Positions 49,549 to 55,397 of a stretch of 64,000 bases of DNA are shown here, piece by piece. Made by a program: the position numbers and the translations under genes. Position 1 is the stretch's first letter, and the number at the start of each line of letters is the position of its first letter. Location: assembly GCA_020632535.1 (NCBI GenBank), contig JACKFJ010000001.1, positions 346,890 through 410,889 on the forward strand, read 5' to 3'. This stretch comes from Candidatus Omnitrophota bacterium. Lineage in GTDB: Bacteria > Omnitrophota > Gorgyraeia > Zapsychrales > JANLHA01. A model generated the notes under the pieces. The model was not told the DNA's origin and made no database searches. It saw only the letters and a program-made list of their open reading frames with translations.

Positions 49549-51095
<1,547 letters not shown>

Positions 51096-51638: not shown

Positions 51639-53628
51639 TGGTTTACCATAGTTTGTGATCAAATTATTAAGAGTATACGATGAATGACTTGGCAGACTAA
51701 GGCGATGAAGGACGTGATAAGCAGCGATATGCTTCGGGGAGCCGCAAATAGGCTTTGATCCGGAGATTTCCGAATGGGGCAACCCCGTTAGGGTTATACC
51801 TAACGATGGCTCTCTGAATACATAGGAGAGATCAAGCGAAACGCTGAGAATTGAAACATCTAAGTATCAGCAGGAATAGAAACCGAAAGGGATTCCCCCA
51901 GTAGCGGCGAGCGAAAAGGGAAAAGGCTAAACCTTACAGTTTACTGTGAGGGGTTGTGGGGCCTCAATATGGGATTGTTTAGTGGTAGGCGAAGCGGCTG
52001 GAAAACCGCACCATAGGAAGTGAAAGTCTTGTAGCCGAAATTACTAAGCACCTTAGAGGTACCCCAAGTACTACGGGGCACGGGAAATTCCGTAGGAATC
52101 TGGCCCGACCATGGGCTAAGCCTAAATACTAAAGTCTGACCGAAAGGGAACTAGTACCGTGAGGGAACGTTGAAAAGAACCCCGGCGAGGGGAGTGAAAT
52201 AGAACCTGAAATTGTATACTTACAAGCTGTCAGAGGCCTATGCATACCTTCGGGTATGAATGGCTGATGGCGTACCTTTTGCATAATGGACCGACGAGTT
52301 ATTATATCGTGCAAGCTTAAAGGCTTATGGCCTGTAGGCGCAGCGAAAGCGAGTCTGATAAGGGCGACAATAAGTACGATATAACAGACCCGAAACCAGG
52401 TGATCTATCCATGGCCAGGTTGAAGCTGTGAGAAATCTCAGTGGAGGACCGAACCCATAAACGTTGAAAAGTTTAGGGATGAGCTGTGGATCGGAGTGAA
52501 AGGCTAATCAAACTTGGAAATTGCTGGTTCTCCCCGAAATAGTTCTAGGACTAGCCTCGGGAAATATCATGATAGGGGTAGAGTTACTGAATAGGCTAGG
52601 GGGCTTACCAGCCTGCCAAACCTAACCAAACTCCAAATACTATCATGTTTTAACCGGGAGTTAGACATTGGGGGCTAAGCTTCAATGTCGAGAGGGAAAC
52701 AGCCCAGACCATCGACTAAGGTCCCAAATATCATCTAAGTGGTAAAGGAAGTGGAATCACATAAACAGCCAGGATGTTGGCTCAGAGGCAGCCATCATTT
52801 AAAGAGTGCGTAACAGCTCACTGGTCGAGTGACTTCGCGCCTAAAATGAACGGGGCTCAAGATGATAACCGAAGTCATGGCTTTTATCTTTCTTCGGAAA
52901 GAAAAGGGGTAGGGGAGCGTAACGTCAAGCGTTGAAGGTGTACCGTAAGGAGCACTGGAGTAGACGTTAGTGATACTGTCGGTATGAGTAGCGAAAACTA
53001 TGGCGAGAAACCATAGCGTCGAAAATCTAAGGTTTCCTGGGGAAGGTTAATCCACCCAGGGTTAGTCGATCCTAAGTTGAGGCCGAAAGGCGTAAGCGAT
53101 GGATATCTGGTTAATATTCCAGAACCGGCTATGAACGTTATCAGCTTAGTGTGACGCAGTGGGCTAGTTACGCGGGGTGTTGGATGTCCCCGTTTGGGCT
53201 AATAGTCCTGTTTAATCGCAGGATGAGGAGCTTGACAACCTGCGGCTACGGCCAAAGGAATGGTAATGAGGCTAGGCTGTCAAGAAAAACCACTAAGTGA
53301 GTATCATAGCTGATCGTACCGTAACCCGACACAGGTAGATGATCATAGAATGATAAGACGCTCGAGAGAAATGTCTCTAAGGAACTAGGCAAAATGACCC
53401 CGTAACTTCGGGAAATGGGGTGCCTGATTGGTCAAGTCCCTCGCGGATGTAGCCATGATGGTCACAGTAAAGAGGCCCGGTCGACTGTTTAGTAAAAACA
53501 CATCACTTTGCTAACTCGAAAGAGAACGTATAAGGTGAGACACCTGCCCAGTGCTGGAAGGTTAACGGGAGAGGTCAGCGCAAGCGAAGCTTCGAACCGA
53601 AGCCCCAGTAAACGGCGGCCGTAACTAT

Positions 53629-54341
53629 AGACAAGACCAACTGTAGTTGTAAAATTTGGCTATATGCTGGAACGTCCTGTTAAGCTGATCGTACGCGCCT
53701 TCATTGAAAGGATGCGTGACAATCGATTAGATAGGGATAATCAGCAGGAAAGGTCTGAAAATGAATCCAGAAATCGGATATTACCTTGCCGGTTTTGCGG
53801 ATGGAGAAGGAAGTTTTAATATTTCTTTTCGCCGCAGGCAAGATTATAAAATTCCATGGAAAATTTCTCTGTGTTTTAATATTTCCCAAAAAGATAAAGT
53901 TATCTTGGCTTTATACAAACATCATTTAGGATGCGGTACGTTACGCGGTAGGCCTGACGGTGTTTGGTATTATGAGGTCAATAACTTCAATGCCATCCGA
54001 GAAAAGGTAATACCTTTTTTCAAAAAATATCATTTTCTTTCTGCAAAGAAGAAACGCGATTTTGCGAAATTCTGCCAAGCCGTAGAAATGATAGAACAAG
54101 GCAAACATCTGCACTATGAAGGTATAAAGGAAGTATTAGAATTACGAAGAGAAATGAACGACGGAGGGAAACGCAAATTCAGTGAAAATGATATCCTCCG
54201 CGCTTTTCAGAAATCCTCAGAGACTATACGCCAAATCCCATCGCAAGATGGGAATGATATAGTCCGATCTTCAGAGAAATCTGAAGTCATCAAAGTAAGA
54301 ATTGATGAGCAGGGTTAAAAGTAACCTTGTTAACATAAATG
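53629..54341 (+). mobile_element. group I intron at the 23S U1917 (E. coli numbering) site
   Basis: The 5' exon ends in U (53628) and the intron ends in G (54341). Removing 53629-54341 restores ccgtaactataacggtcctaaggtagcg. A candidate internal guide gtagttgt (53643-53650) pairs with exon gtaactat (53621-53628), giving a U:G pair at the splice site. Carries a LAGLIDADG ORF. Confidence 0.85.
53761..54318 (+). CDS. LAGLIDADG homing endonuclease (single-motif, I-CreI-like size)
   Basis: YLAGFADGEGSFNISF motif at residues 8-23. 185 aa, with a basic C-terminal half. Located entirely within the 23S intron. Confidence 0.85.
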   Translation: MNPEIGYYLAGFADGEGSFNISFRRRQDYKIPWKISLCFNISQKDKVILALYKHHLGCGTLRGRPDGVWYYEVNNFNAIREKVIPFFKKYHFLSAKKKRDFAKFCQAVEMIEQGKHLHYEGIKEVLELRREMNDGGKRKFSENDILRAFQKSSETIRQIPSQDGNDIVRSSEKSEVIKVRIDEQG

Positions 54342-55397
54342 AACGGTCCTAAGGTAGCGAAATTCCTTGTGGGGTAAGTTCCCACGCGCACGAATGGTGT
54401 AACGAATTGGGCGCTGTCTCGGAGACATACTCGGTGAAATTGTAGCGGCGGTGAAGATGCCGTCTACCCGCACCAAGACGAAAAGACCCCAGAACCTTTA
54501 CTGCATTCTGGTATTGAGTTTTGGTCCTATTTGTGTAGGATAGGTGGGAGGCTTTGAAGCTCGGGCGCTAGCTCGGGCAGAGCCAACGGTGAAATACCAC
54601 CCTGATAGTATTAGAATTCTAATCCTGTCCCGTGAAACCGGGCAGGCAACAGTGCCAGATGGGCAGTTTGACTGGGGCGGTTCCCTTCTAAAGAATAACG
54701 AAGGGGTTCAAAGGTCTCCTCATGACGGTTGGCAATCGTCAGTAGAGTGTAAAGGCATAAGGAGGCTTAACTGCGAGTCCGACAGGACGAGCAGATACGA
54801 AAGTAGGACTTAGTGATCCGGTGGTTGGTCATGGGACTGCCATCGCTCAACGAACAATAGGTACTCTGGGGATAACAGGCTGATCGCGCTCGAGAGTTCA
54901 TATCGACAGCGCGGATTGGCACCTCGATGTCGGCTCATCCTATCCTGGGGCTGTATAAGGTCCCAAGGGTCCGGCTGTTCGCCGGTTAAAAGGGTACGTG
55001 AGCTGGGTTTAGAACGTCGTGAGACAGTTCGGTCTCTATCTGGTGTGGGCGTGTGATACTTGAAGGGGAGATCTTCTTAGTACGAGAGGACCGGAAGATA
55101 CGAACCACTGGTGTTCCAGTTATCCTGCCAAGGGTAATGGCTGGGTAGCCAAGTTCGGAATGGATAAGCGCTGAATGCATATAAGTGCGAAACCAACCCC
55201 AAGATAAGGTATCGATTCTGCGTAAGCAGAGAGAGGCTCCTTGTAGACTACAAGGTTGATAGGCTGCGAGTGTAAGTTCTGAAAGGAATTCAGCTAAGCA
55301 GTACTAATAAGCCGAGAGTTTGATCACTTAAAAAAGCTTTTTCTTGATTCGTTTTACCCTTTTATTCCATAACTGAAAATTTCATGAAACGGAATTT

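Follow-up and report, generated by a model that had tools for sequence, protein, structure and literature searches.

A very probably mobile L1917 group I intron with a complete ribozyme core and a LAGLIDADG gene in its P6/P6a loop

The single 23S rRNA gene in the window (by which we mean the whole 64-kb stretch of DNA that was analysed) is interrupted in helix 69 by an insertion of 713 nt. This insertion is very likely a mobile L1917-lineage group I intron, with a complete catalytic core and a homing endonuclease gene accommodated in the loop of P6/P6a. The ribozyme has a normal size of ~257 nt and comprises P1, P3 to P9, predicted P9.1 and P9.2 hairpins and a proposed P10; it is IC1-like, its P5 domain is complex, and P2 is missing. 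Its core is split in two, with ~125 nt at the 5' end of the intron and ~132 nt at the 3' end.

The rRNA operon, the only one in the window, is ordered 16S (49549-51095), tRNA-Ile, tRNA-Ala, 23S and 5S. The bacterial LSU model of Rfam covers 51657-55327 as a full 23S gene with one large gap of 714 nt, which is flanked by ...GGCCGUAACUAU and ACGGUCCUAAGG (given also as ...GGCGGCCGUAACUAU and ACGGUCCUAAGGUAGC). By direct reading, the 5' exon ends in cgtaactat at 53628 and the 3' exon restarts with aacggtcc at 54342. Excision of the insertion joins GGCCGUAACUAU to AACGGUCC and restores helix 69, which is interrupted after E. coli U1917; this position, the one that defines the L1917 lineage, is supported both by the Rfam LSU alignment and by the sequence of helix 69. 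The first base of the intron and the first base of the 3' exon are both A, and by sequence alone 53630-54342 would be another possible interval; we chose 53629-54341 because these boundaries satisfy the splice-site U•G and the terminal-G rule.

The occupation of this site is not due to chance. A genome scan limited to one genome per species yielded 273 relatives, from which 80 loci were kept, and 75 of these 80 carry an insertion of 676-830 nt at the identical junction, between CGTAACTAT and AACGGTCC. The original prediction had placed an L1917 insertion in helix 69 at 53629-54341, and direct reading and the LSU alignment reproduce each of its coordinates exactly. The internal guide that it proposed, with a U:G pair at the splice site and a G at the end of the intron, can be read directly as U53628•G53643 and G54341, and bacterial introns at L1917 are, as it stated, already known (Haugen 2007, PMC1995217; Tsurumaki 2024, PMC11270868). 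The coordinates of all parts of the element are collected in Table 1.

Table 1. Features of the intron and its host gene in the window, with the basis of each assignment.
Feature	Coordinates	Strand	Basis or remark
23S rRNA host gene	51657..55327	+	Rfam RF02541, 2642.6 bits, model 1-2925 full
Group I intron, 713 nt	53629..54341	+	Direct reading, LSU alignment, covariation, custom model
5' exon strand of P1, GUAACUAU	53621..53628	+	U53628 = E. coli U1917 = 5' splice site
P10 strand (proposed), GACC in P1 loop	53635..53638	+	Predicted to pair with 3' exon GGUC 54345-54348
Internal guide sequence GUAGUUGU, P1 3' strand	53643..53650	+	Pairs with exon GUAACUAU 53621-53628, U53628•G53643
P3 5' strand UUUGGC	53655..53660	+	Pairs with GCCAAA 54230-54235; 100% paired, compensatory in 4/6 pairs
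P4-P5 domain	53666..53745	+	Covariation, Rfam on 5' half, model R1 and MFE fold agree
P4 GCUGG / UCAGC	53666-70 / 53741-45	+	100% paired
P5 UCCU / GGGA	53675-78 / 53734-37	+	100% paired; compensatory in 3/4 pairs
P5a CUGAUCG / CGAUUAG	53685-91 / 53724-30	+	Covaries
P5b hairpin	53693-53717	+	Covaries
P6 5' strand AGGA (53746-49), internal loop AAGG, P6a 5' strand UCUGAAAA (53754-61)	53746..53761	+	
LAGLIDADG homing endonuclease ORF, 185 aa, motif YLAGFADGEGSF, E16	53761..54318	+	Intron nt 133-690
Conserved endonuclease domain, aa 8-135	53782..54165	+	PDB matches, codon-position identity
P6a 3' strand UUUUCAGA (54204-11) and P6 3' strand UCCU (54214-17)	54204..54217	+	Within ORF
P7 5' strand GACUA	54222..54226	+	Pairs with UAGUC 54260-54264; pseudoknot with P3
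P3 3' strand GCCAAA	54230..54235	+	Covariation
P8 hairpin UCCCAUC-GCAA-GAUGGGA	54236..54253	+	Compensatory in 7/7 pairs
J8/7 (AUGAUA) and P7 3' strand UAGUC	54254..54264	+	Rfam alignment, covariation, conservation
P9 hairpin CUUCAGA-GAAA-UCUGAAG, GNRA loop	54269..54286	+	99.5% paired; compensatory in 6/7 pairs
P9.1 UCAUCAA/UUGAUGA	54287-54308	+	MFE fold
P9.2 CAGGGUUA/UAACCUUG	54310-54329	+	MFE fold; ORF stop UAA (54316-18) at tip
3' tail UUAACAUAAAUG, omega G54341 terminal	54330..54341	+	UAACA and last G conserved

Covariation was assessed by joining the two ribozyme halves in 30 non-redundant related introns, with 500 shuffles and slid partners as controls. In these 30 introns, 86.5% of the cells are paired, compared with 73.4% after shuffling and 35-43% with slid partners, and 421 cells are doubly changed, compared with 172 in the shuffled set; the observed values were reached by none of the 500 shuffles. 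Compensatory changes are found in P3, P4, P5, P6a, P7, P8 and P9, within a P3-P9 core with a P3/P7 pseudoknot, and in P6a (8/8) and P8 they affect every pair. Pairing is complete in P3, P4 and P5, and stands at 99.5% in P9, 98% in P6 and 95.7% in P7. P5a and P5b both covary, and their lower pairing of only ~76% is caused by slippage in the alignment.

The same core was recovered with a covariance model (R1) built from 12 ORF-less introns only, of which 11 are L1931 introns and one is an L1917 intron, with the window left out. On both strands of the 64 kb, R1 has two matches only, and these are the two halves of the intron, separated by the ORF: a 5' match at 53650-53845 (52.4 bits, E 1.8e-14), which aligns well up to ~53775, and a 3' match at 54055-54289 (48.9 bits, E 2e-13), which aligns well from ~54210. 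A scan of the whole window with Rfam at gathering thresholds reported no intron, because the ORF-containing insert of ~440 nt is more than the model can span. When RF00028 was run in E-value mode on sub-regions, the 3' half scored 30.8 bits (E 8.8e-6; gathering score 50), with P7, J8/7 and P9 aligned as in the manual assignment, and the 5' half scored 11.4 bits over model positions 42-128, with P3, P4, P5 and P6 assigned identically. An ORF-less intron of 269 nt, found at the same site in L024, has the same sequence blocks with a short loop capping P6a, and its score with RF00028, 64.2 bits, exceeds the gathering score of 50. Further, when the ORF is deleted and the remaining sequence is folded by MFE, P4, P5, P5a, P5b, P6, P6a, P7, P8, P9, P9.1 and P9.2 are recovered, including every helix outside the pseudoknot.

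With so little RNA outside the reading frame, the original prediction had held that the core must either overlap the ORF or be reduced. The overlap is there, with P6a' to part of P9.2 lying in the final 115 nt of the ORF; a reduced or minimal ribozyme is ruled out, since every core helix was located and covaries. The check that it had put forward, an RF00028 scan combined with the folding of P1 to P9, gave partial matches below the gathering score on both halves, and the full core was assembled by hand; the gathering score is an operational cut-off and does not define the structure of a group I intron.

The 8-bp P1 is 99.6% paired, with the U•G invariant in 30/30 introns. In its otherwise variable loop, a P10-type GACC is kept (often as part of GGACC or UGACC), with 90.5% of its cells paired; covariation in P10 is impossible because the exon is invariant. 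P2 is absent, the linker between P1 and P3 being AAAAU only. In most of 75 introns, the P6a duplex has an energy well under that of shuffled controls, and the sequences that form it are diverse. P7 shows compensatory changes from UA to CG and from AU to GC, is the most conserved stretch of the intron, and is the same P7 that RF00028 aligns. Two outer UA/UA pairs that were first included in this helix show no covariation and have 3-5 non-pairs, which leaves a P7 of 5 bp. P9.1 and P9.2, as predicted by the MFE fold, are present in the window and in the nearest relative (L001) and missing from many others; this region aligns poorly, with 38-52% of cells paired. The intron ends in G in most relatives and in A in a few.

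The reading frame occupies the loop closed by P6/P6a and extends from there through the 3' half of the ribozyme. The 132 nt before the ORF hold P1, the 5' strand of P3, P4, P5, P5a, P5b and the 5' strands of P6 and P6a; the ATG at 53761 begins where the P6a 5' strand ends. At the other end, the final 115 nt (aa 148-185) are at the same time P6a', P6', P7, P3', P8, P9, P9.1 and half of P9.2, in which the stop codon at 54316-18 is located. Among 74 relatives, identity to the window at the first, second and third codon positions is 0.76/0.87/0.41 in the endonuclease domain, 0.64/0.68/0.64 in the core overlap (54204-54290) and 0.92/0.95/0.87 in P6'-P3'. The relaxation of third positions in the domain indicates selection on the protein, and the loss of this pattern in the overlap indicates selection on the RNA.

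The invariant C-terminal motifs of the protein, SSETIRQ and DDIVRSSEKSEV, are ribozyme helices read as codons and not protein features. Of the ORFs in the 74 relatives, 9 stop before P7, 31 between its two strands and 34 after P7'. In the window, the last 38 codons are the 3' half of the ribozyme read as protein; this tail, which differs in length from relative to relative, is not required in one fixed form and is probably dispensable for the enzyme. The overlap may also affect translation. P6/P6a takes in both the A of the start codon and the sole Shine-Dalgarno-like sequence, AGGAAAGG (53746-53); the 3' end of the 16S rRNA reads ...CACCUCCUUUC. Ribosomes would also need to open P6' to P9, and translation and ribozyme folding would therefore be expected to be mutually exclusive in any one molecule. 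In some relatives, the ORF continues beyond the 3' splice site and enters the exon.

The 185-aa, single-motif LAGLIDADG reading frame that had been assigned to intron nt 133-690 has exactly these coordinates, and its product matches the full profile of Pfam LAGLIDADG_1 (PF00961) at aa 9-108 with 76.8 bits (cutoff 23.1). The motif, LAGFADGEGS, is present in one copy. Its glutamate, E16, lies opposite the motif glutamate in each of the two halves of the I-OnuI-family matches, and is invariant in 14 homologues; in total, the search returned 4115 protein homologues. The conserved domain ends at about aa 135-140, equivalent to about nt 54165-54180. The best PDB matches, with E 1e-37 to 1e-36, are to halves of the enzymes I-OnuI and I-SmaMI, followed by I-Vdi141I (3e54), a homodimeric enzyme of an rRNA intron (E 7e-20), and in all of them the homology spans aa 8-135 and includes the glutamate at the metal position. 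Enzymes of the I-OnuI type are two-domain monomers, whereas the protein in the window has a single domain and would, as far as its sequence indicates, need to dimerise like 3e54. A palindromic homodimer target was sought in helix-69 DNA, and only weak symmetry was found (6/11 positions, centred 2.5 bp upstream of the insertion); because helix-69 DNA is only weakly palindromic, the homodimer target is not placeable from sequence.

Together, these features suggest the following mechanism. The intron would be transcribed within the pre-23S rRNA, and P1 would arise from pairing of its guide GUAGUUGU with the exon in helix 69. The P3-P9 core, with its P3/P7 pseudoknot, would then be built from two segments joined by P6/P6a, which would close a loop of ~440 nt holding most of the gene. 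Attack by an external guanosine after U53628 would free the 5' exon, which would in turn attack after G54341 and thereby restore helix 69. The protein would most likely act as a homodimer that cleaves 23S rDNA lacking the intron, near position 1917, and repair of the break would then install a copy of the intron (homing). An additional role as a maturase that aids RNA folding is plausible by analogy, because the LAGLIDADG protein of a related L1931 intron, that of the Thermotoga neapolitana 23S rRNA, has maturase-like activity (PMC3984707).

That precedent also supports a different account, in which the ribozyme is intact, the protein serves mainly or only as a maturase, and the intron has been inherited vertically and not by homing. 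The nearest genome to the window, an Omnitrophota MAG (L001; JACKFI010000011.1) and not a member of the CPR, has the intron at the same junction, with 94-98% identity to the window in the flanking 23S gene, 85% nt identity in the intron and ~90% aa identity in the protein. An intron more diverged than the rRNA around it fits vertical descent of this pair. Over larger distances the pattern is different: the element and its relatives are hosted by Omnitrophota, Elusimicrobiota, Acidobacteriota, Bipolaricaulota, Chloroflexota, Gammaproteobacteria, Bacteroidota and others, and in other phyla the intron is 66-77% identical, near the identity of the rRNA itself, although such a comparison of exon with intron is only roughly informative for dating transfer, given that further downstream introns in many relatives distort the 3' exon. 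The occupation of one site in many phyla at such identities argues for horizontal spread by homing. The glutamate at the catalytic position is conserved, as is the whole domain, and homing and maturase roles do not exclude each other. We therefore regard a protein restricted to maturase function as unlikely, and a homing intron as the better account.

It is highly improbable that the insertion is instead an intervening sequence removed without ligation, which would leave a fragmented 23S rRNA, or that it is retained in the mature rRNA. At least one bacterial 23S group I intron, that of Simkania, is reported to remain unspliced, which speaks for retention. Helix 69 is an intersubunit bridge, however, and from general knowledge of the ribosome neither a break nor an insert of 713 nt is likely to be tolerated there. 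The element in the window has a complete, covarying group I core, the splice-site U•G, a terminal G and a guide matched to its exon, all of which argue against a mere intervening sequence. A long processing stem formed by the ends of the insert, of the type seen in intervening sequences, does not appear in the fold, in which the flanking exon bases pair with one another, as they do in helix 69. Further, the insertion sites that correspond to known intervening sequences processed by RNase III, 23IS2 and 23IS4, are distinct from position 1917, which is 23IS6 (Tsurumaki 2024, PMC11270868).

Least probable of all is an assembly artefact in which a foreign intron was joined into the rRNA operon: chimeric joins are, as is generally known, common at rRNA operons in metagenome assemblies, but the independently assembled L001 also carries this intron at this junction, and with it the P9.1/P9.2 extension, which is missing from most other relatives.

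The mobile L1917 intron favoured here has close counterparts at a second site in the same region. L1931 introns (of Thermotoga, Synechococcus and Simkania) share its scaffold, and ORF-less L1931 relatives share its P3-P9 sequence blocks; they differ in their guide, GCCUUAG as opposed to GUAGUUGU at L1917, and in their site, which is 14 nt downstream. No L1931 intron is present in the window. Three related genomes have, in an L1931 intron of the same scaffold 14 nt downstream, an enzyme that shares 79-80% identity with various L1917 enzymes, and the L1917 intron is ORF-less in the two of these three genomes in which the site can be read. The reverse arrangement, with the gene in the L1917 member of twin introns, occurs in about twenty other genomes. 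We tentatively raise the possibility, which we hold to be less likely than not, that the endonuclease lineage is not bound to one site, and that one enzyme acting on the DNA of helices 69-71 drives the homing of twin introns. If this were so, the ribozymes would switch sites by a change of guide alone, the gene would move between two P6a loops, and the window would represent a solo state with the gene at L1917.

The practical lesson concerns annotation: group I introns that carry an endonuclease gene escape rRNA and intron scanners where the ORF splits the core, and this element is a clear example. It leaves present knowledge of group I introns and homing endonucleases unchanged.

Several described introns can be set beside it. 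Coxiella burnetii reportedly has two self-splicing 23S introns around a 34-bp exon (Raghavan et al. 2007), and this spacing fits positions 1917 and 1951. The first of these, Cbu.L1917, is said to be ORF-less, to belong to another subgroup and to have no terminal G; it shares its insertion site with the intron in the window, which by contrast has both an ORF and a terminal G. In the 23S genes of CPR bacteria, position 1917 (23IS6) is among the common sites of LAGLIDADG_1 genes, in elements that resemble group I introns (Tsurumaki 2024, PMC11270868), and the enzyme characterised in that study, I-ShaI, belongs to another site, 23IS7. The 23IS6 elements share the site and the LAGLIDADG_1 ORF with the window; that survey was confined to the CPR, whereas the window element and its relatives are found in many phyla.

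The closest parallels are L1917 introns with single-motif LAGLIDADG genes, as in Synechococcus sp. C9 (743 nt, 181 aa, DQ421380) and Thermotoga subterranea (774 nt, 168 aa, AJ556793) (Haugen 2007, PMC1995217). L1917 introns are described there as IC1-like elements that have a complex P5, lack P2 and resemble L1931 introns, and the ORF of the Synechococcus C9 intron runs from P6 through P7, P3 and P8 into P9 (Haugen 2007, PMC1995217). Compared by description, the intron in the window is like these two in its site, its sizes, its single motif, the layout of its ORF, its complex P5 and its lack of P2; it differs in its Omnitrophota-like host and in an ORF that continues past P9 and P9.1 to stop in P9.2. 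The original prediction had singled out the small amount of non-coding RNA as unusual, and although the lengths that it gave are exact, the same layout was already published for this site (Haugen 2007, PMC1995217). What the element adds is an Omnitrophota host to a family spread over many phyla.

A second intron, at L1931 and thus 14 nt downstream of L1917, is present in many related 23S genes (CCTAAGGT/.../AGCGAAATTCC; slashes mark the intron ends); the window has no intron at L1931. This twin shares its ribozyme scaffold with the L1917 intron and differs from it in its guide, GCCUUAG. In the usual state of twin-intron loci, the endonuclease gene resides in the L1917 intron and the L1931 twin is an ORF-less element of 262-276 nt. 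Three loci from other genomes, L024, L054 and L072, display the reversed state, with the gene inside the L1931 intron. The L1917 introns of L024 and L054 have no ORF; that of L072 cannot be delimited because the locus is missing the 5' exon motif. Each of the three L1931-borne enzymes has its own counterpart among the L1917 enzymes, at 79-80% identity, rather than matching the other two at that level. A single enzyme lineage may serve both sites.

In some of these same genomes, L1931 is occupied by other, different intron types (see table). The larger of these carries a LAGLIDADG gene that seems to be of a different kind from that of the L1917 introns. Four further loci (L004, L023, L026, L068) yielded distinct LAGLIDADG genes, whose identity, both among themselves and with the L1917 type, is about 35-55%.

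Introns and related features in the window and in 23S loci (L handles) from other genomes
Feature	Locus	Coordinates	Size
Shine-Dalgarno-like motif and first base of start codon within P6/P6a	window	53746-53763 with 54204-54217
Twin introns	L024	2067-2335 and 2350-3076
Twin introns	L054	1913-2328 and 2343-3111
Intron of the twin set	L072	854-1593
Intron of the twin set	L035	3101-3370
Twin introns	~20 other loci
Very small group I-like intron at L1931, different scaffold	L004-L008, L018		~200 nt (about 192-204 nt)
Intron with LAGLIDADG gene at L1931	L010, L012, L050, L051		about 640-670 nt

P6/P6a of the window intron contains both the Shine-Dalgarno-like AGGAAAGG and the opening base of the start codon, a placement suggesting that translation may be gated by ribozyme folding. 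Many relatives instead have a separate GGAGG immediately past the P6a 5' strand.

At the other end of the gene, the endonuclease ORF has no in-intron stop codon in the L1917 introns of L002-L007, L009, L011, L014, L016, L021, L023, L025 and L027. These ORFs cross the 3' splice site (...AAC G/AA CGG UCC UAA) and continue to the UAA within 23S CCUAAGG, so that their proteins end in ...NERS. The complete ORF with its stop therefore exists only on the unspliced precursor RNA, and the intron, once excised, would be a message lacking a stop codon. By contrast, the window ORF stops 23 nt upstream of the splice site.

In L015, L020, L028 and L037, which belong to Fraserbacteria and Bipolaricaulota MAGs, the L1917 introns have ...GACA instead of a final G ahead of AACGGTCC, and may lack the canonical terminal G. 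They would in this respect resemble one of the two Coxiella introns, which, going by the title of the paper on them, reportedly also lacks it.
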